Virus record (IMG/VR): IMGVR_UViG_3300021431_000076
Location: 128,001 to 192,000 of that record
Reading direction: 5' to 3' (one strand)
Origin: a virus
Taxonomy: Duplodnaviria; Caudoviricetes
Length of the DNA: 64,000 bases
Shown here: positions 11,799-54,483 of the stretch, piece after piece
How the letters are laid out: each line of letters opens with the position of its first letter
Numbering within the stretch: the first letter of the stretch is position 1
Made by a program: the position numbers and the translations under genes
Notes under the pieces: generated by a model
Seen by the model: the letters and a program-made list of their open reading frames with translations, nothing else
The model's database searches: none
Told to the model about the DNA's origin: nothing

Positions 11799-11930
11799 AA
11801 TGAAGAATAGGGTTGCCTCCATTAATACGGTTTGCTCATCCGTGGTCATATCCTTTCTGATAATTGATTGTTATACATGCGTCTATTTTCCTATTCTTCT
11901 CCCATAGGTCATGGATGGCCTATGGGATAC
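11799..11930 (+). ncRNA. candidate sRNA exposing anti-SD sequences
   Basis: TACT-N6-TAA at 11788-11800; 10-bp closing stem 11802-11811/11890-11899; 3' hairpin 11900-11927 with G-U on the + strand. Confidence 0.5.
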
Positions 11931-17776: not shown

Positions 17777-17873
17777 GTTGACTCCTCCTTATCTATCATT
17801 ATAATAGTATATGTCTAAAAATCATATTAGAGAAAAAAATACAAGGATGTAGAGTCCTTGTATTTTTTCCTGC

Positions 17874-18317
17874 TTATTTGCAGGAATCATCATCTGGATC
17901 ATTCCACTGTACTACCATATATGTGAATGGGTGTTCTTTGTTTGGATTAAATCTAGAAATTGCAAAACCGGCTTGCTCTGTAAGAGCCATAACTGCATCA
18001 CCAAGCACGTCTTTAGTGCATGTGATATCAGGTTCAATTTTGCTTTCTTTCTCTTTAGAAGATGCAACTTGAGCCATCGCCGTCTTGATATCATCGGCTG
18101 TTGCTTTTTCGTCAGATGCTTCTATTTCCTTATATAAAATAGTAGCATTAAACTGAGCTTTGTTCATAGCATCTTCGATCTTAGAAACAATGACATTTAT
18201 AACATTTTGCACATTTTTGTCATGTTTCTCTTGCTTTCTTTTAACAATTTCTGCGTAAACTTTTGCAGAAACCTCAGATGCTTTTGCGGCGTTGATAGAA
18301 ATGTTGAACTTTGTCAT
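17874..18317 (-). CDS. hypothetical early protein (structured-leader cassette A)
   Basis: Start MTKF behind AGAAAGGAG; own promoter and terminator. Confidence 0.8.
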   Translation of the reverse strand: MTKFNISINAAKASEVSAKVYAEIVKRKQEKHDKNVQNVINVIVSKIEDAMNKAQFNATILYKEIEASDEKATADDIKTAMAQVASSKEKESKIEPDITCTKDVLGDAVMALTEQAGFAISRFNPNKEHPFTYMVVQWNDPDDDSCK

Positions 18318-18388
18318 GATAAAAGACTCCTTTCTACTTTTAACTGTCTGCATATCAATCTCGTATGCAGATCTTTTGTCTTTATCAC
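18315..18388 (-). promoter_or_regulatory. structured 5' leader, copy A
   Basis: 5' GTGATAAAGAC pairs with GTCTTTTATCAT(G); inner stem TCTGCATA/TATGCAGA with a GAGA-containing loop. Confidence 0.7.
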
Positions 18389-18466
18389 GGCTATAATATA
18401 CATTTGAAATATAGTATTTTTACAAAAAAGATAGTAAGGGAAAAATCCCTTACTATCCAATTTACA

Positions 18467-19183: not shown

Positions 19184-20350
19184 TTACACAGTTCCTCTAC
19201 TATTTTGAGTTGTAGCATATAACGTATCTTTGAGTCTAGACTCAATTTGAACAAGTTCTTGTTCAACTTGCTGTCTCTTAGCTCTGCCTTCTTGTTGAAT
19301 ACGAAGAGTCTCTTCGATGGTAGTGATAAGAGATTCATTTGCTTCTTTAAGACTCTCTATATCTACTATACCTCTTTCAGACTCTTTAGCAGTCTCAATG
19401 CTATTAGTCTTCAGCATCTCAGCATTTTTCTTGATAAGTTGATTAGTCATATCGGTAACAGACCGATTCAGTTTTAATACTTGAGCCTGTCTATTCAGAC
19501 CAAGAGATACACACACACTCATCTTCCAAAGAGGAAGTGTATTATTGATAGTGGTCTGTACTCTATCAATCAGCATCTTGTCATTATTCTGAATTAGACG
19601 AATCTGAGGAGCAGTTTGAATAGATATAGTCTTGGATATCTTCAAGTCATGAAGTTTCTTTTCAAATCTATCTACCATCTGTTCAAAATCTGCTACAGCT
19701 TGATTAGCCATCATATCACCAGACTCAAGAGCTTGCTGTTTAAGAGATGGTAACGCTACTTCTCTTAATTCAGTAAGTTTCTCTTCGCCAGCCTGTATAT
19801 ATAACTGAAGGTTCTTAAAGTATTCATAATTCTTCTTATATAAAGTATCATAAATCTTTATATCCTTCATCATCATATGCTGGGCCTTATCTAATTCAGA
19901 CTCTATTCTGGTGACCTGAGTAGATAGAGAATCATATCCTCTAATCATCTTCTTAGAGTTATCTACTAATTTACCTAAGAATGGAATCTTAGTAAGGAAA
20001 GAATTGTTAGACTTATCAAAGTCTTGTACTTTTCCTACTAAGTCATTCAGCAACTCACCAACATGACCAGAATCTTTAGTCTTTACATTCTGAAGTATAG
20101 AGTCTGAGAAAGTTGTAATATTTCTCTGTGCTACATTACCAAATGAAATTACTGAATTGGTATCAGTTATATTGATAGAATCTTTGATTCTATCAATCTC
20201 TTTTCTATCCTCAGGAGAAATCTCTGCTAGCTCAAAATCATTTTTAACAGGCATGGTTTCCTGCACATTCTGAATAGCAGTTTCAGAACTAGGAACTGCT
20301 TTATTAGCAGCTCCACTCATAATATCCTCCAATTTGTACTCTGTTGCCAT
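19184..20350 (-). CDS. telA: toxic anion resistance protein (TelA/YaaN family)
   Basis: Coiled-coil with FG..AQ, F.D.IL..VK.KD.G.VG.LL..L, Q.APQIRLIQ.N...L, T.P.WK and E.ERG.VD.E.L. Confidence 0.88.
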   Translation of the reverse strand: MATEYKLEDIMSGAANKAVPSSETAIQNVQETMPVKNDFELAEISPEDRKEIDRIKDSINITDTNSVISFGNVAQRNITTFSDSILQNVKTKDSGHVGELLNDLVGKVQDFDKSNNSFLTKIPFLGKLVDNSKKMIRGYDSLSTQVTRIESELDKAQHMMMKDIKIYDTLYKKNYEYFKNLQLYIQAGEEKLTELREVALPSLKQQALESGDMMANQAVADFEQMVDRFEKKLHDLKISKTISIQTAPQIRLIQNNDKMLIDRVQTTINNTLPLWKMSVCVSLGLNRQAQVLKLNRSVTDMTNQLIKKNAEMLKTNSIETAKESERGIVDIESLKEANESLITTIEETLRIQQEGRAKRQQVEQELVQIESRLKDTLYATTQNSRGTV

Positions 20351-20373
20351 AACTAAGCATTCCTCTCTTTATA

Positions 20374-21597
20374 TTATTCATAAATGGTTGCATGATGAGA
20401 TGCTATCTGTCTTTTAAGTTTTTCAGAATCGTACCATGCAATCATTTTAGCCCACGCGAGATCATTAAAGAAGATATCCAAACCATCCTTTTTAAGAAAA
20501 TCGGCATCATTTCCAATAGCAGTAGTGATTCCTTCACATATAGAAAGTAAGTATGGAACAAATGTAAAGAAAAGAACTGTTCTAATAAGAAATGAAGGTT
20601 GATTAGAATATTGCTTATGGAATGAAAATATTCCAGTAATTGGAAATAGTGCCAATCCTATATATGTTTTTCTTGATTTATGTACAGCATTTTTTTGTTC
20701 TGCAGTAGCAATATGATTATACCAAAATTCAGCATATTCTTCCTGTATCTGTCTTATCTGTTCCATAGGAACTCTATTACTAAATGCTTCACTTAAATCT
20801 TTGCAATATTCTTTCAAAACTCTTTCCACTTCCCTATTTTTTGGTTTGCCATATAAAGGATGCGATGTATCCGTATAGTAGTAATCACTATTATCAGTAA
20901 TCTCTGCCACTTGATTTTTTGTAACTGTAGTATTTTCTTCTTCAGAAGATAAATCTATTTCATCCATCCTTTCCTCTATATCTTCATAAATCTTTTGAAC
21001 TTTTTCTCTTTTCTCATTAGAATTACTAGTATCAACTTCCTTTATTTCTCCAACCTCAATACCCTGCTGTTGCATATCTTCCATCAACACAGCCAATTCT
21101 GCATTGATATCAATATGATCAGTATCTGTAATCTTCTTATATTCATTATTAAATACATCTACAAAACTTATCAATACATTTCTTATATTAGATTTAGTAT
21201 TAATAAAGTCAGTATCAATAACTACAGATGCAGCTTCATTCATAGAACTAAATTTACGAGAAAGCATAACTGCTTTATCTTGATAATGTTCTATAAACTT
21301 CCTAGCAGTAAAGATTTTTTCTGGATTCTTCTGAATATGCTTAATGATTGTAAAAGAAATCTCAGCCAATTTGAATAAAGCAGTTGCTAATTCTTTATCA
21401 TTACCAGTCTTATCTATATTACCACTAGATAACCTTAAAGTATTTTGGTCTTTCACTGCTTTAGAAAGTAATTCTTTTTGAAACTTTTCCATTTCATCTT
21501 GAGTATAAGATTCCCCATCAAGTAGTTCCATATTTGACCCTCCTCTTGTTATTTCTTTGCCGTTTATGAATATTCTACACGAAAACATATTATACAC
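20374..21597 (-). CDS. XpaC-like protein with C-terminal TM2-like membrane domain
   Basis: I..NPEK...ARKF...Y segment typical of XpaC; upstream of telA as in bacteria; KSRKTYIGLALF..G.FSFHK.Y near the C-terminus. Confidence 0.65.
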   Translation of the reverse strand: MYNMFSCRIFINGKEITRGGSNMELLDGESYTQDEMEKFQKELLSKAVKDQNTLRLSSGNIDKTGNDKELATALFKLAEISFTIIKHIQKNPEKIFTARKFIEHYQDKAVMLSRKFSSMNEAASVVIDTDFINTKSNIRNVLISFVDVFNNEYKKITDTDHIDINAELAVLMEDMQQQGIEVGEIKEVDTSNSNEKREKVQKIYEDIEERMDEIDLSSEEENTTVTKNQVAEITDNSDYYYTDTSHPLYGKPKNREVERVLKEYCKDLSEAFSNRVPMEQIRQIQEEYAEFWYNHIATAEQKNAVHKSRKTYIGLALFPITGIFSFHKQYSNQPSFLIRTVLFFTFVPYLLSICEGITTAIGNDADFLKKDGLDIFFNDLAWAKMIAWYDSEKLKRQIASHHATIYE

Positions 21598-25335: not shown

Positions 25336-25950
25336 TTAATCTTCCCAATATACAGAAATTAGTGCATCTTTCTTAGCCATGTAATAATTTATATTTTCTA
25401 TAACACAATCTTTCCATTCTGAATTGCATTTATCCCAATAATACACAGATAACCATTTTCTAAAATACTCTATTGCTTCATCTAAGTTATTAGTAACCAT
25501 TTCTTTTCTTGGATGATGCCAATAACTATTAATGAACTCTTCATGAAATGGAAACTTCTTAGTCCATAACACATTAAGTGGAACTATTTTAGATTCCTTG
25601 TATTTAGGTTTTACTATGGAGTCGTATGTTTTTCCAATATAATCTTTCTCAATTTTGTAGTACGGACAAATATAATTAGAATATACTCTCTTTCTCAGAT
25701 AATATGTATTGATAAAGGAATTATGTCCATGATAAAATTTACGTTTATCCAATGTTTTCCAAGAACTTATTTCCCAAATAGCTGAAAGGGATAAATCATC
25801 ATCATATTGGGTTCCATCCTTTTTATAGAACTTGTATTCTTTATTAGTATACGTTATCTTATTTCCAACTATATTCCCAATCAATTCATCTCTTGCAAAT
25901 TCTATTTCTAGTGGTTCAAACACTCTTAAGATTACATCACACCGCTCCAT
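25336..25950 (-). CDS. hypothetical protein
   Basis: GAGAGG SD; 204 aa, aromatic-rich. Confidence 0.75.
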   Translation of the reverse strand: MERCDVILRVFEPLEIEFARDELIGNIVGNKITYTNKEYKFYKKDGTQYDDDLSLSAIWEISSWKTLDKRKFYHGHNSFINTYYLRKRVYSNYICPYYKIEKDYIGKTYDSIVKPKYKESKIVPLNVLWTKKFPFHEEFINSYWHHPRKEMVTNNLDEAIEYFRKWLSVYYWDKCNSEWKDCVIENINYYMAKKDALISVYWED

Positions 25951-26260: not shown

Positions 26261-26358
26261 TTACATTCTCCTCTCTTAATCTACCTACAATAAAATAGTA
26301 TATATCTATAAAAAATATTAAAAAAGAAACAGGATGTAGAGTCCTGTTTCTTTCCTGA

Positions 26359-26739
26359 TCATTTGAGAAATGCATATTTATAATCATTCTCAAATATCTT
26401 TTTTATCTCTTTCTTAAATACCTCCTGTTGGTATTCTGAAAAGGGTTTTGTTTTTACTGTTATTTCCACATCCTTTCTATCTCTTTTTGCTAAGATATAG
26501 AAAGAACTTTGTTCTTCTACGGATTCATGATGAGTAATATTTTCTAATGAAAATTCACCTCCTTCCTTTTCAAACAGATTTAGATCTTCTTTGAGAGCTT
26601 CCATGAACTCTCCGCAACATTGATAAACCATTTTGAAACCTTTATCGGTTTCTACTAAACAAGATCCGCTTTCAGTGAATACCCCTAAATATTCAGACAG
26701 TTCGGACATTGCTGCTTCTTTGGAAATGTTTTTCTTCAT
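26359..26739 (-). CDS. hypothetical early protein (structured-leader cassette B)
   Basis: TAAGGAGGT SD; own promoter and terminator. Confidence 0.8.
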   Translation of the reverse strand: MKKNISKEAAMSELSEYLGVFTESGSCLVETDKGFKMVYQCCGEFMEALKEDLNLFEKEGGEFSLENITHHESVEEQSSFYILAKRDRKDVEITVKTKPFSEYQQEVFKKEIKKIFENDYKYAFLK

Positions 26740-26804
26740 GATAAAGTTACCTCCTTATCAAATACATGAACTACATCTTCTCGTGTAGTTCTTTACTTTA
26801 TCAC
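26737..26804 (-). promoter_or_regulatory. structured 5' leader, copy B
   Basis: GTGATAAAGT pairs with ACTTTATCAT(G); inner stem GAACTACA/TGTAGTTC, loop CGAGAAGA. Confidence 0.7.
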
Positions 26805-26821
26805 AGTTATAATATGCAACT

Positions 26822-26942
26822 AAAAAAATAAAAAATGACATGATGCGGAAGAGATCTGTTTCTGACTTCAGATCTCTTGGTAATGTGTTAACTATCAATT
26901 TCCCCCAAAATTAATAATACTCCTTCATCCACATCACATCAC
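26822..26942 (-). ncRNA. candidate ~120-nt three-way-junction ncRNA
   Basis: Promoter at 26947-26954; 14-bp closing stem with G-U pairs; two inner hairpins; T-tract; no ORF. Confidence 0.6.
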
Positions 26943-27031
26943 TATTATAATATATAACTATAATTTGGTTTACTTTGCAGAATCAAAATACGCTTTTAGT
27001 GTATTTTTAAATTCATGCTATTCCCCTAAAT

Positions 27032-44237: not shown

Positions 44238-44266
44238 ATGAGGAGTCCTATTGCAGGACTCCTCAT
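44238..44266. terminator. bidirectional terminator
   Basis: ATGAGGAGTCCT/AGGACTCCTCAT between convergent genes. Confidence 0.8.
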
Positions 44267-44269
44267 ATA

Positions 44270-44479
44270 TTACTTGATTTCATCAAGCGGCAAAGCAGTT
44301 TCCATCTGCTTTGCCATCAATTTCAAAACATCCCTTGAGATGTTGTCGTTATTGATATTATCTACTAATACCTTTATGCACTTCAGGTAAGCCTGAGAGC
44401 AATTTGCTGATGCTTCCTGTGCATCAGACAAAAGCTCAAGTTCTTTCTCCTTGTTTGCTATAAACTCGCTCCACTTCAT
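44270..44479 (-). CDS. hypothetical early protein (structured-leader cassette C)
   Basis: Start MKWSE behind GAAAGGAG. Confidence 0.75.
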   Translation of the reverse strand: MKWSEFIANKEKELELLSDAQEASANCSQAYLKCIKVLVDNINNDNISRDVLKLMAKQMETALPLDEIK

Positions 44480-44546
44480 GATAAGACACTCTCCTTTCAA
44501 TTATACATGTCTATGCCTAATCTCTGACATAGATCTATCTTATCGC
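44477..44546 (-). promoter_or_regulatory. structured 5' leader, copy C
   Basis: GATAAGATA pairs with TGTCTTATC(ATG); inner stem TCTATGTC/GGCATAGA, loop AGAGATTA. Confidence 0.7.
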
Positions 44547-44550
44547 TGCT

Positions 44551-44607
44551 ATAATATACAATTATAATTATCTAAATTTTCAAATAGTTATATACTATAT
44601 ACATGAG
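44551..44607. promoter_or_regulatory. back-to-back early-type promoters
   Basis: TATATTAT on - (44551-44558) and TATACTAT-ATAC-ATGAG on + (44591-44607). Confidence 0.75.
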
Positions 44608-50016: not shown

Positions 50017-53000
50017 ATGGCTTTAATGATTGATGAACTTCATCCTCTAAAGTTATATTCTGGTAATTATTTTTATAATATTCAGAAAGAGGATAGAAAG
50101 AAAGGTTCATTAGTATATCTAATGACTCCTAACAAACAATCTTCTATAAATGTAATAAATCATAAACTAGGAAAGAGAAATAATATTCTATTCCAATCTT
50201 ATTTCTTAGATAGGAATATAGATTTTGTTATAAATGGTAATCTAAGTGAGAGTAAGACTTACAATATCAATGATGAAGAAGTTATACCAGAAATAGGTAT
50301 AACTGAATCTCTTATGATAGATAATAGAAATGAAATAAGTTTAACTGAAAATGCTCTTATCTATAATGGAGAAGATTATAAAGAGAGAATCTTATTTCCA
50401 GATGATGTAGATGAGATATTATCTGAAGCATCTCAATATAAGACTAAATATGGATCTTATAATCTTACAGCTATATTTAAGAATATGCTATATAAGCATA
50501 GACTTAAAACAAATAAAGATGTATTGAAGATATATGAAGAGATAAAGAAGTCTTGTGATCTGATTAAGTTTACTTATGTAGATCCTAGATTATATAAAGG
50601 AAGAAATCTATTCTATGATTGGTCTTATTATACAGAGATATTCTTCAAGGAGAATTCGAAGTTCCAACAAGAAAGAGGATTAGACGTATTCTTCAGTTTT
50701 ATGGATAAATTTATAACTGATAGAAGATTCCCTGATTATAGTATCAAGACTATAGTTATACCAGTAAATGATTGGTGTAAAGGATTAGAAGATCCATATG
50801 ACTTCAAAAAGAATATAAATCCAATCTCTTTATTCTTTAGAAGATTTAGAATGAACTTTACTCAATTTGGTAATTGGAGTAACCATAACATTCTCTTCTT
50901 GGGAACTAATGGATTCTTTACTATGAAATTAGATAATTTTGATCCTAATAAACAACTATCTAGATTTAAGATGTGCTGTGATAAGCTTATTAGGGAAGAT
51001 TATAGCGATGCGGAGGTTGTTGATACTGATTCTAAGACTATGATGATGAGCTTTATTGCAGATAAATTAGCTCAAGGTGGTATAGAATTAGACAATATAT
51101 CTGGTGCTACTAAGCATTTCTCTAGAGAAGAGATTAAAGATATGGGAACAATGAATAATCCTACTCTAGAGAAAGATAAATCTATTAAGAAAGCTATCTT
51201 AGTACAGAAATTAGAAAAGATAGTAAATCAAGCTAAAGATACAAATGAAGTTCTTAAGAGATTTGAAGATAATGATGATAGTGAAGAAAATGAGCAATTA
51301 AAAGAACTATTATTAGATATCCAATCTGATGATGGTGTTAAGATGAATCAGGCTAGAACTGATAGAATGCAAGCTACAAGAAAAGAACTATTAAAGAAAC
51401 AGATCAATGGTAAATCTGTAGCAGATCTAATGGATCAATTCTCTAAGAATTATGATCTTAAAGAAGCAGGTGTAGAGATAGATTCTATTGATGAAACTTG
51501 GAAACATCTTAAGTTCCCTTCATTCTATTCTTCTTATACTAAAGAAGATATGGAAGCAGATATAGTTGCTGTATTTAAACACTATACAACTGTAACTCAT
51601 CCAATGAATATCTTAGATATCAATGTAGAGAATACTTCTACTGCTGAAGATTATGTGAATACTTGGACTGTTAAGTATGAAGATGCTGAAACAGGTAAAA
51701 GATATACAATGGTAGTAGATATGCCTAGATTGATTGATAATCGTTTCATGATGTTAAGAGGTAATGAGAAGGTATTGATTTCTCAATTCATGCTTATGCC
51801 TATTATCAAAACATCAGAATTTGAATGCCAGATGGTGTCTAACTATAACAAGATATTCATTAGAAGAAAATCTCCTACAGGTAATGGTAAATCTACTGTT
51901 ATTATCAATAAACTTATGAGAGTTTTACTTAAATATGATGGAACTGATTTCAAAGTAAATACTGGTGATAATAGAAAAGTAGCATCTAGATATGAACTAC
52001 CAATAGATTTTATTGATATGACTACTACCTTTGATTCTATCCAATTTAATGATGGTTCTTATATCTCTTTCAATATGAAGACTCTATCAGAAATTCCAAT
52101 AGATAGAACTCTATTAGGAAATACTAAACTTACTGATGAAGAATTAAACCGTAAATATATGGCTATCTATGTAAATAAGAATGGTAAAAGAGTTCCTATA
52201 TCAGAGGAATCCTGTGATCATTTTATTTTAAGAACTATTCAAAAGTATGATAAATCAGGAAGATTCCAAGAATTATATGACGTATCTTCTGTATCTAAGA
52301 AGCTTATGTATGCTGAAGCATCTATCTTGGGTATCAAAATACCAGTAATAGTATTGCTTTCATATAATATAGGATTGCAAAAAGTATTATCTCGTCATAA
52401 TATCGAGTACGAATTCACTGAGAAGAGACCATCTAAAGATCAGTTCTATATCAAATTCTCTGATGGATATTTAGTATATGAACCTAAATCTGAAGCAGAT
52501 AATCTATTAATAAATGGATTAATGCAATTTGATACATCTGAATATTCTATATCTGATATAAATTCTAAAGACATGTGGATTTCAGTATTAGATGAATTTG
52601 GTGGTAGAATTAAAGCAGATGGTTTAGATAACTTCTATGACCTCTTTATGGATCCTATTACTACAGAGATTTGTAGACTTACTAATCTACCAACTGATTA
52701 TGTAGGAGCTATGCTATATGCCAATGATCTATTGATAGATAATAAGTACAATCGTCATACTGATATTACTGGTAATAGATTAAGAACTAATGAGATTATA
52801 GTAGGTCACTTATATCTAGTAACTTCAAGAGCATTTGGTGATTATAGAAAGACTATTAAGAAGAATCCAAATCTAGCTCAGTTTACAGTAAAGAAATCTG
52901 CTGTAATTGATTCTATCTTAACTCACGATCAGACTTCTTCAGACTTATCTACATTGACTCCACTTCTAGAATCTGAATCTGGTGGTAAAGTAACATTTAA

Positions 53001-54483
53001 AGGTCTATCAGGTATGAACTCAGAAAGAGCATTCTCTGTAGATAAGAGAACTTATGATAAGTCTATGCTAGGTATAGTAGGTATTTCTACTGGTTTTGCT
53101 ACAACTGTAGGTGTTAATAGACAGCTTACCATAGATGCTAATATTAGAAATAAGAGAGGATTTGTTGGTAATACAGAAGCAAAGAATCTGAACAGTACTA
53201 ATGGATTCTCTATGTTTGAAGCATTATCTCCAATGGCTATTAATCATGATGACCCATTCCGTACAGCAATGGCATATACACAAACTGGTCAACATCAGAT
53301 GACTACTAGAAAATCTATGCCTAACTTAGTAACTACAGGAGCAGATCAGGCTATAGCTTATCTTACTTCTAATAAATTTGCTTATAAATTTAGAGGAAAT
53401 AGAGGTATAGTTAAAGAGATTAACAATGATTATATGATTATTCAAGATCTAGATACTAAAGAATGTGAATTTGTTGATCTTAGAGAAACAATTAGAAAGA
53501 ATTCTGATGGTGGTTTCTATCTTACTACTAAACTTACAGCTACAGAAGGATTGAAGAAAGGATCTAAACTAAAACAAAATGAGATAGTAGCATACGATAG
53601 AAAGAACTATTCTAAATCTGTTGGTACTACTGGAGATCCTCATGATATTTCTTATAATATTGGTACTCTTGCTAAAGTAGCTATCATGAATACAGATATG
53701 GCATTCGAAGACTCTTGTGTAGTAGATGAATATGTATCTGATGCATTGACTACCAATCTATGCTATATGAAAGATATCAATCTAAATAAACTTTCTAACG
53801 TATATAATCTAGTAAAACCAGGAGATAAAGTAGAAGCAGATGATAGTCTATTAGTATTCCAAGATTCATTTGATGAAGAAGAAGCAAATGAACTATTAAG
53901 AAATATCTCTATGGATCAAGAATTCATTTCAGATATTGGCAGAAAACATATCAGATCTAAAACATCTGGTGTGGTACAAGATGTAAAGATATATAGAACT
54001 TGTGAGATATCTGAACTCTCTCCCACATTACAAAAGATTTGTAAAGAACATGATGCTAGAATCAATAAACTTAAGAAAGCTATGAGAGATAATAAGATAG
54101 AAAGAGAATATACTCTTGAACCTACTAAAAAATTAGAAGCATCTGGTAAACTAAAAGGTTTAGAAGGTGTAAGAATAGAGATCTATGTAAAAGCAGTAGA
54201 TAAGTTTGGTATAGGTGATAAACTTGTATTCTATCAAGCTCTAAAAGGTGTATGTTCTTATACTATTCCTAAAGAAGTATCTGGTTATACAGATTATAGA
54301 CCTAATGAGAAAGTAGGAGCTTATCTATCTCAGATTGGTACATTCAAACGTATGGTTCCTTCTTGTTATCTATTAGGATTCACTAATAAACTATTAGTAG
54401 AACTTACTAGACAATGCCAAGAAGAACTAGGAATTAAATGGAGACCAATACAAGAAATAATGGAAGATGAACCAGAAGAATAA
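50017..54483 (+). CDS. multisubunit RNA polymerase beta-like subunit (split, phiKZ/AR9-like)
   Basis: RGNEKVLISQ, HDDPFRTAM...Q, FEDS, GDK, KGV and RM motifs; ends before the usual beta C-terminal GEME region; long phage-specific N-terminus. Confidence 0.88.
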   Translation: MALMIDELHPLKLYSGNYFYNIQKEDRKKGSLVYLMTPNKQSSINVINHKLGKRNNILFQSYFLDRNIDFVINGNLSESKTYNINDEEVIPEIGITESLMIDNRNEISLTENALIYNGEDYKERILFPDDVDEILSEASQYKTKYGSYNLTAIFKNMLYKHRLKTNKDVLKIYEEIKKSCDLIKFTYVDPRLYKGRNLFYDWSYYTEIFFKENSKFQQERGLDVFFSFMDKFITDRRFPDYSIKTIVIPVNDWCKGLEDPYDFKKNINPISLFFRRFRMNFTQFGNWSNHNILFLGTNGFFTMKLDNFDPNKQLSRFKMCCDKLIREDYSDAEVVDTDSKTMMMSFIADKLAQGGIELDNISGATKHFSREEIKDMGTMNNPTLEKDKSIKKAILVQKLEKIVNQAKDTNEVLKRFEDNDDSEENEQLKELLLDIQSDDGVKMNQARTDRMQATRKELLKKQINGKSVADLMDQFSKNYDLKEAGVEIDSIDETWKHLKFPSFYSSYTKEDMEADIVAVFKHYTTVTHPMNILDINVENTSTAEDYVNTWTVKYEDAETGKRYTMVVDMPRLIDNRFMMLRGNEKVLISQFMLMPIIKTSEFECQMVSNYNKIFIRRKSPTGNGKSTVIINKLMRVLLKYDGTDFKVNTGDNRKVASRYELPIDFIDMTTTFDSIQFNDGSYISFNMKTLSEIPIDRTLLGNTKLTDEELNRKYMAIYVNKNGKRVPISEESCDHFILRTIQKYDKSGRFQELYDVSSVSKKLMYAEASILGIKIPVIVLLSYNIGLQKVLSRHNIEYEFTEKRPSKDQFYIKFSDGYLVYEPKSEADNLLINGLMQFDTSEYSISDINSKDMWISVLDEFGGRIKADGLDNFYDLFMDPITTEICRLTNLPTDYVGAMLYANDLLIDNKYNRHTDITGNRLRTNEIIVGHLYLVTSRAFGDYRKTIKKNPNLAQFTVKKSAVIDSILTHDQTSSDLSTLTPLLESESGGKVTFKGLSGMNSERAFSVDKRTYDKSMLGIVGISTGFATTVGVNRQLTIDANIRNKRGFVGNTEAKNLNSTNGFSMFEALSPMAINHDDPFRTAMAYTQTGQHQMTTRKSMPNLVTTGADQAIAYLTSNKFAYKFRGNRGIVKEINNDYMIIQDLDTKECEFVDLRETIRKNSDGGFYLTTKLTATEGLKKGSKLKQNEIVAYDRKNYSKSVGTTGDPHDISYNIGTLAKVAIMNTDMAFEDSCVVDEYVSDALTTNLCYMKDINLNKLSNVYNLVKPGDKVEADDSLLVFQDSFDEEEANELLRNISMDQEFISDIGRKHIRSKTSGVVQDVKIYRTCEISELSPTLQKICKEHDARINKLKKAMRDNKIEREYTLEPTKKLEASGKLKGLEGVRIEIYVKAVDKFGIGDKLVFYQALKGVCSYTIPKEVSGYTDYRPNEKVGAYLSQIGTFKRMVPSCYLLGFTNKLLVELTRQCQEELGIKWRPIQEIMEDEPEE

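Follow-up and report, generated by a model that had tools for sequence, protein, structure and literature searches.

A multi-copy, covarying leader RNA set flush with the start codon of predicted early ORFan genes in a jumbo phage

The aprE and ermC leaders are 5'-end stabilisers of Gram-positive mRNAs, the T4 e, soc and I-TevI early transcripts carry hairpins that mask the start site, and the MS2 maturation gene contains a long-distance interaction between the 5' end and the Shine–Dalgarno (SD) sequence, with hairpins in between. Jumbo phages that possess their own RNA polymerases (RNAPs) run the early programme independently of the host, and to our knowledge almost nothing is known about the post-transcriptional control of their early messages. 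The element described here is a leader RNA present at three sites on the minus strand of a 64,000-nucleotide stretch of viral DNA (the window), which comprises bases 128001–192000 of the 332,775-bp IMG/VR record IMGVR_UViG_3300021431_000076, graded complete and with a GC content of ~30%. The leader is ~60–70 nt long. Its first 7–10 bases (consensus GAUAAAG..) pair with the last 7–10 untranslated bases (..CUUUAUC) to form a helix, P1, which encloses a variable hairpin of 7–10 bp, P2, and an A/U-rich single strand of 20–28 nt that presents a strong SD. It is of a known kind, a 5'-closing leader that masks the start region; what is new is a multi-copy, covarying family of such leaders, flush to the AUG, on the predicted virion-polymerase transcripts of a jumbo phage.

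In Bacillus subtilis, RNase J1 is blocked when the extreme 5' end is paired, as seen for RoxS on the yflS mRNA (PMC5419742), and on the hbs mRNA ribosomes initiating at a strong SD also block RNase J1 (PMC5737220). The leader resembles the Gram-positive stabilisers in its paired extreme 5' end, the strong SD nearby and the Firmicute-type host proposed for the phage, but the partner of its 5' end is the SD–AUG spacer in cis, always flush with the AUG, and the arrangement is repeated on a dozen genes. With the masking structures of T4 and MS2 it shares a helix of the upstream leader that occludes part of the initiation region, the partner in MS2 also lying at the very 5' end; it differs in that it keeps the SD open, pairs only the spacer plus, at most, the A and U of the start codon, and belongs to a multi-copy family. 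The genetic units that carry the leaders recall the PeSL cassettes of T4-type phages, in which repeated modules, each an early promoter plus a stem-loop, flank ORFans (PMC2839356, PMC4122927), since both stand beside ORFans, have flanking terminators and appear to be shuffled as modules. However, the PeSL promoter is sigma-70-like, with a stem-loop that serves as a terminator and lies either at the promoter or upstream of it, whereas the jumbo-phage promoter resembles those of the AR9 virion RNAP and the conserved fold is transcribed and locked to the start codon. The virion polymerase that phage AR9 injects reads early promoters of the consensus AAATATATATTAT-(6N)-G+1, derived from 41 mapped starts, and a predicted, unexplained motif, which enters the present comparison by its mention alone, has been reported in AR9 early 5' untranslated regions (UTRs) (PMC5312081). 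The AR9 early genes and the leader sites have the promoter core and its distance to G+1 in common, but six AR9 early leaders that were read lack the P1/P2 design, and the covariance model of the leader described below has no match in AR9 (whole genome), LPJP1 or S6.

The initial annotation of the window had described three minus-strand copies of a conserved leader placed directly behind an early promoter, and re-reading of the sites confirmed the P2 stems, the GAGA in all three loops and an AR9-type ATATTAT box at every site. The order at each site is a ATATTATA box, three bases, a 5' arm G(T/C)GATAA..., an 8-bp hairpin with GAGA in its loop, an A/U-rich stretch ending in a strong SD, and a 3' arm ..TTATC that abuts the ATG. 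For two of the open reading frames (ORFs) the ORF lister chose an upstream in-frame codon lacking an SD, and the SD-spaced ATGs were taken as the plausible starts. The features of the three sites, in window coordinates and all on the minus strand, are as follows.

18393–18399, minus strand: early-promoter core ATATTAT of site 1, with the predicted +1 at the G at 18386, 6 nt downstream
18315–18386, minus strand: leader RNA of site 1, from the predicted +1 to the AUG (covariance model, 63.9 bits)
17874–18317, minus strand: cargo gene of site 1, a 147-aa ORFan
17834–17868, minus strand: intrinsic terminator directly 3' of the site 1 ORF, with a core common to the site 2 terminator
18429–18458, minus strand: intrinsic terminator upstream of site 1, which insulates the cassette
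26809–26815, minus strand: early-promoter core ATATTAT of site 2, with the predicted +1 at the G at 26802
26737–26802, minus strand: leader RNA of site 2 (covariance model, 65.9 bits)
26359–26739, minus strand: cargo gene of site 2, a 126-aa ORFan, followed by a terminator at 26356–26320
44551–44557, minus strand: early-promoter core ATATTAT of site 3, with the predicted +1 at the G at 44544
44477–44544, minus strand: leader RNA of site 3 (covariance model, 66.3 bits)
44270–44479, minus strand: cargo gene of site 3, a 69-aa ORFan, followed by a terminator at 44266–44238

The minimum-free-energy (MFE) fold calculated with RNAfold forms P1 and P2 in every copy and places the SD inside a large open loop, in agreement with the initial description of the SD as mostly unpaired. 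At site 1, P1 pairs 18386–18378 with 18326–18318 and contains a one-base bulge, P2 pairs 18371–18364 with 18354–18347, the SD GGAG occupies 18330–18327 in the open loop and the start codon lies at 18317–18315. The corresponding elements of site 2 are 26802–26795 with 26747–26740 (P1), 26791–26784 with 26775–26768 (P2), 26756–26750 (SD) and 26739–26737 (start codon). Site 3 has a P1 of 9 bp (44544–44536 with 44488–44480), with a C/A mismatch at position 2 of the helix as it was drawn initially, a P2 formed by 44533–44526 and 44517–44510, an SD at 44496–44491 and a start codon at 44479–44477. Compared with dinucleotide shuffles, sites 1–3 have z-scores of -2.6, -3.8 and -2.6, respectively. The site 1 leader folded from +1 has an MFE of -13.2 kcal/mol (z -2.1) and the site 3 leader an MFE of -16.5 kcal/mol (z -2.6).

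Covariation, which the initial annotation had claimed from three copies, now extends to relatives of the phage and holds against controls by shuffling, sliding and swapping. In the 28-sequence alignment fitted to the model, 91.9% of the cells are paired and 11 of the 17 base pairs show double changes. The double-change cells number 60, compared with 20.6 ± 3.3 after shuffling (none of 500 shuffles reaches the observed value) and with 4–10 when the partner strand is slid. Because this alignment is biased toward the model, the count was repeated on a structure-blind MAFFT alignment, which yielded 32 double-change cells versus 12.6 ± 2.6 (0 of 500 shuffles as high). Two tests that require no alignment gave the same outcome. 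The arms of P1 form 7.9 contiguous pairs from the flush end with their own partner and 5.8 when arms are swapped between copies, and the halves of P2 pair at -12.1 kcal/mol with their own partner and at -5.6 kcal/mol when swapped; in neither test did any of 10,000 permutations reach the observed value. Individual compensatory changes are seen between orthologous genes: G-C to A-U and A-U to C-G in P2 between site 1 and its orthologue, C-G to G-C in the leader of the site 2 orthologue, and GAUGAAU/AUUCAUC in place of GAUAAAG/CUUUAUC at two other orthologous genes. Four pairs of P1 are invariant, and the pair between G+1 and C-1 is always kept.

The fold is that of the sense RNA rather than of the DNA, because 27 of 28 copies fold more stably as the sense strand than as the antisense strand (p = 8e-6) and G-U cells exceed A-C cells, 29 to 13. 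When P1 is formed all four SD bases remain unpaired in 21 of the 28 copies, and the others have no more than two of these bases paired. The gain of P1 over the best alternative fold amounts to ~0–6 kcal/mol, the helix being AU-rich and marginally stable. P2 has at least three loop types, mostly AGAGA, AAGA or UGG, and conservation is seen in the loop and junction sequences, covariation in the P2 stem.

Copies were located with a regular-expression scan and with a covariance model, R1, built from a seed of 15 copies. The 332,775-bp genome contains 10 full copies and 2–3 short ones, the latter retaining P1 but lacking P2. The window contains 6 instances of a combined promoter-plus-arm pattern where 1.2 are expected, and the genome contains 12, against none in a reversed control. 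A second P2 subtype (stem CAUCA/UGGUG) had been left out of the seed, and model R1 recovers four copies of it (E 1e-10 to 3e-6); the model also has 8 matches in a 342-kb relative, IMGVR_UViG_3300028048_000040. Two further copies lie on one ENA contig, and others on at least six short metagenome contigs. In IMG/VR, loose DNA patterns gave mostly chance matches and only the two-arm pattern was specific; several of its matches that lacked an SD were excluded. The comparison with Rfam proposed initially assigned the leader to no family: at the gathering score the single match in the window is a tRNA, and an E-value scan of the three loci returned only a chance miRNA match (23 bits, versus a gathering score of 95). 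The protein encoded at site 1 has only one other cluster at 90% identity among 5.8 billion proteins, and the clade that carries this cargo is therefore judged from sequence to be narrow.

Three groups of unusual copies were observed. In two metagenome-contig variants (L288:2007-2070, minus strand, and L322:952-1010, plus strand) the 5' arm has two possible partners, either a nearby UUAUCA, which would give a local 5' hairpin, or the UUAUC that precedes the AUG; these are the only copies that resemble a genuine two-state design. A short-form leader with weak P1 pairing at genome positions 96771–96862 (L013:17571-17662, minus strand) stands before a 13-aa ORF, MARFDRGSVVRRR, which is directly followed by a terminator and may represent a micro-peptide cassette or a small RNA (sRNA). 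In a P2 subfamily with CAUCAUGGUG (for example, genome 91792–91860, 1647–1716, 225252–225321 and 268971–269042) the start context AUCAUGG recurs in the 5' strand of P2, whose 3' strand is similar to the 5' arm, so that P2 looks like a miniature P1 and may be a decoy or the trace of an internal duplication.

Each of the 12 leader genes of the genome is a single-gene unit consisting of promoter, leader, ORF and an intrinsic terminator at most ~50 nt after the stop codon, often with another terminator just upstream of the promoter. The products comprise 69–216 aa. The initial impression that the three ORFs of the window are unrelated was borne out, and it extends to all 12 products, which have no BLASTP match to one another below E = 0.1; none matches Pfam above the curated cut-off or a PHROGs family of known function. 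Sites 1 and 2 have a terminator core in common. The site 1 orthologue in relatives is 82% identical and its leader carries the compensatory P2 changes described above, while the same P2 is seen with a different P1 and cargo (site 3 and copy L348) and the same cargo with different leaders. Promoter, leader and terminator together are thus a reusable chassis for unrelated ORFans, around which it is apparently shuffled. A further unit was noted at window 26825–26953 (minus strand), where a second early promoter ~140 nt upstream of site 2 heads a unit of ~100 nt that lacks a credible ORF. As judged by eye, pairing is possible between the first 9 bases of this unit and CAUCAUGUC, which follows an internal hairpin and precedes a U-run, and the unit looks like a 'closed' small RNA that uses the same principle of closing the 5' end.

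Profile searches of the whole record identified two beta-like and two beta'-like RNAP fragments (two matches to Rpb2_6 and two Rpb1_2 regions, one above the cut-off and one weak, 13.2 bits). One beta-like protein, of 1488 aa with a long N-terminal extension (window 50017–54483, plus strand), is closest to the corresponding genes of the phages LPJP1 (Listeria), PBS1/AR9 (Bacillus), S6 (Staphylococcus) and phiR1-37 (Yersinia). It probably represents the subunit of the virion polymerase that would read the ATATTAT promoters. The split RNAP subunits and these nearest genes assign the phage to the phiKZ/AR9-type jumbo phages with two RNA polymerases, related to AR9/PBS1. The SD usage, together with the closest related phages, suggests a host of the Gram-positive Firmicute type. 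No cultured phage matched the window DNA by megablast.

The motif (t)ATATATTAT-N6-G, with a preference for T at -1, is present in all leader copies and at ~30 intergenic sites besides, so that the leader promoters share with AR9 the core ATATATTAT, the 6-nt spacing to a conserved G and the T preference. A sigma-70 scan did not call the leader promoter boxes, the ATATTAT-type motif is enriched in LPJP1 and S6 as well, and no second promoter was found inside the leader helix. These sequence features class the promoter with the early promoters of the AR9 virion RNAP, and the probable start of transcription is the G 6 nt after ATATTAT (18386, 26802 and 44544). The initial annotation had the 5' end of the transcript pair with both the SD–AUG spacer and the start codon. 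The first part holds; the second is weakened, because with the AR9 spacing (6N to G+1) the transcript would begin at the third base of the 5' arm as first drawn. The first two pairs of that helix oppose 5' R-T, which is the promoter consensus at -2/-1, to 3' A-U, which is part of the AUG, and they carry no weight as evidence because they set the promoter consensus against the A and U of the AUG. The RNA helix of 7–10 bp would then span -1 to about -9 and probably halts exactly at the AUG without pairing it, and the start codon would be abutted rather than sequestered, unless the polymerase starts 2 nt earlier than that of AR9. The register itself is strict: ATC directly precedes ATG in 12 of 12 leader genes, compared with 7 of 344 other starts (p = 7e-18).

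Other promoter-like motifs were noted near the cassettes. A second class with the core TATATACTATT (C for T at one position) occurs 14 times in the genome, 13 of them in promoter-like contexts, and comes with a conserved upstream box of its own (TTTGAGTAAA-like) and with leaders that start with GAGUAUGAGU; examples lie at window 25923–25933, 26304–26294 (minus strand) and 27537–27527 (minus strand), and at genome 2233, 225846 and 279967. These promoters often directly follow the terminator of a leader cassette and may represent a middle or a variant early class. GACA-N6-TAA motifs, which resemble the AR9 late AACA-N6-TA/G, stand right after three cassette terminators (genome near 76,930, 91,370 and 99,920), and a crude genome-wide count of this motif gave no enrichment. 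A late promoter of this type inside the conserved ACAUGU box was rejected, the spacing being a misfit as judged by eye.

A cis-acting fold with a dual role, protecting the 5' end and gating initiation, is the best explanation and is given an even chance of being correct. The model sets out from the observed structure, covariation, strandedness, fixed register to the AUG and cassette context, and adds by inference the transcription start, a stabilising effect and an effect on translation. In a Gram-positive host the paired 5' end would shield the message from 5'-end-dependent decay by RppH and RNase J1, the helix starting at nucleotide 1 provided that +1 is the predicted G. P1 would at the same time occupy the SD–AUG spacer, such that a 30S subunit docked on the exposed SD would have to unzip P1 to place the AUG, and the leader would thereby set or gate the rate of initiation. 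P1 is AU-rich and only ~0–6 kcal/mol better than its best alternative, and could be opened by a ribosome.

Several points weigh against the dual-role fold. P1 is short and AU-rich, with +1 at the third base, and in some copies it is not dominant once coding bases are included; at site 2 a rival local hairpin between the 3' arm and UGAUAAGG just upstream is nearly isoenergetic. The transcription start is placed by analogy with AR9 only, and the early leaders of AR9 themselves lack the design. In many other early leaders of the phage the 5' end is unpaired. A simple hairpin formed locally at the 5' end would give equal protection, and protection alone fails to explain the fixed register to the AUG. 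Finally, the conserved AGAGAUUA, the AAGA before P2 and the CAUGU after P2 are left unaccounted for by the model and hint at a partner. A general rule that all early transcripts of the phage have paired 5' ends was also considered and discarded, since many short leaders begin directly with the SD.

The hint of a partner leads to the most viable alternative, which is nevertheless doubtful: the leader would be an operator for a trans-acting factor, an RNA-binding protein, nuclease or small RNA of phage or host origin, that switches the early ORFan messages off or on together, in the manner of T4 RegA and RegB on the early mRNAs of T4, and whose recognition site would be the P1 helix, the junction bases or the conserved loop of P2. 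Conservation of loop and junction while the P2 stem covaries, the four P1 pairs that never vary and the presence of the same leader on at least 12 unrelated early genes, which suits coordinate control, are what such an operator would be expected to show, yet the three or more P2 loop types suit a single sequence-specific binder poorly. The protein- or sRNA-responsive switch proposed initially is unsupported by the genome searches, which found no homologue of RegA, RegB, CsrA or RNase III and no antisense to the leader consensus outside the leaders themselves, and by folding in silico: when the 5' arm is blocked and the 3' arm is thus freed, local alternative pairings replace P1, the start site stays unexposed and no 'on' state results. 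A candidate sRNA at window 11800–11926 does favour the ribosome-binding-site regions of the leaders (ranks 4, 7 and 10 of 356; Mann-Whitney p = 2e-6), but this signal is largely generic anti-SD pairing. A single strand of this candidate, which is encoded on the plus strand, contains UCCUUUC and UUAUACAUG, matching the two conserved, unpaired leader-loop blocks GAAAGGA and CAUGUAUAA, with the best match at site 3. The broader form of this alternative, also tentative, is that the leader is the shared handle of a phage-wide post-transcriptional regulon, read by a phage sRNA, or by a phage protein that lacks any known RNA-binding fold, through the loop and junction bases or the flush helix of 5' end and AUG, which would release or silence the early ORFan cassettes jointly.

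It is less likely that the repeats are primarily recombination or shuffling cassettes similar to the T4-type PeSLs, patches of homology that move ORFans and whose fold has little function. The location of every copy beside a single-gene ORFan unit, the terminator cores shared by sites 1 and 2, the different leader variants on orthologous genes and the single P2 found with a different P1 and cargo (site 3 and L348) all accord with shuffling. Shuffling alone, however, does not predict compensation in two helices, the asymmetry between strands or the exact register to the AUG, and this reading can stand alongside the dual-role fold instead of replacing it.

A role of P2 and the U-rich tail as an attenuator that yields a short 5'-UTR RNA, or as an endonuclease processing site that matures the message, is improbable. 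The jumbo phage 201phi2-1 is reported to produce 5'-UTR-derived sRNAs by premature termination (PMC11512511), and a terminator scan flagged P2 and the tail of site 2 on the sense strand, a single weak terminator-like call, but in most copies CAUG separates the stem from a U-rich stretch that is itself weak, the short copies retain P1 without P2, and the phage lacks RNase III. Least probable by far is a DNA-level element, with the inverted repeats as protein half-sites or a promoter cruciform, since the overlap of the 5' arm with the promoter start region and the partial origin of the R-T-G-A conservation in the promoter consensus are outweighed by arms ~50 bp apart that covary copy by copy, as the half-sites of one protein would not, and by G-U pairs and a sense-over-antisense stability that indicate RNA.

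A number of described RNA elements were considered as identities for the leader and rejected. A riboswitch is incompatible with a P2 whose sequence is free to vary and which is missing from the short copies, and the alternative fold leaves the start site unfreed. RNA thermometers of the ROSE or fourU type are excluded by an SD that is unpaired in the closed state, fully so in 21 of 28 copies. CsrA-regulated leaders do not fit P2 loops that are mostly not GGA, and the search for CsrA, which covered the phage genome only, found none. T4 RegA and RegB targets were discarded as PF01818 and PF10715 have no match in the genome. In a triple helix the strand adjoining the 3' arm would be the purine-rich SD, a misfit in topology, and UACAU sites for MazF/EndoA occur in one copy only.

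Just upstream of site 1, window 19184–21597 on the minus strand holds a full-length TelA-like gene (PF05816, E = 2e-112) together with its neighbour, which carries a Halogen_Hydrol domain. The pair is also present in the relative (L279).

For phages of this kind, the leader family would provide a mutable handle on the survival of early messages in the face of host RNases and on the timing of their translation. If the regulon reading were true, it would mean that AR9/phiKZ-type jumbo phages have a layer of control akin to RegA/RegB, undescribed so far. If the proposed effects hold, the leader could also serve as an expression part for Gram-positive hosts. The promoter–leader–terminator chassis helps to explain how such phages gain and express new small genes.

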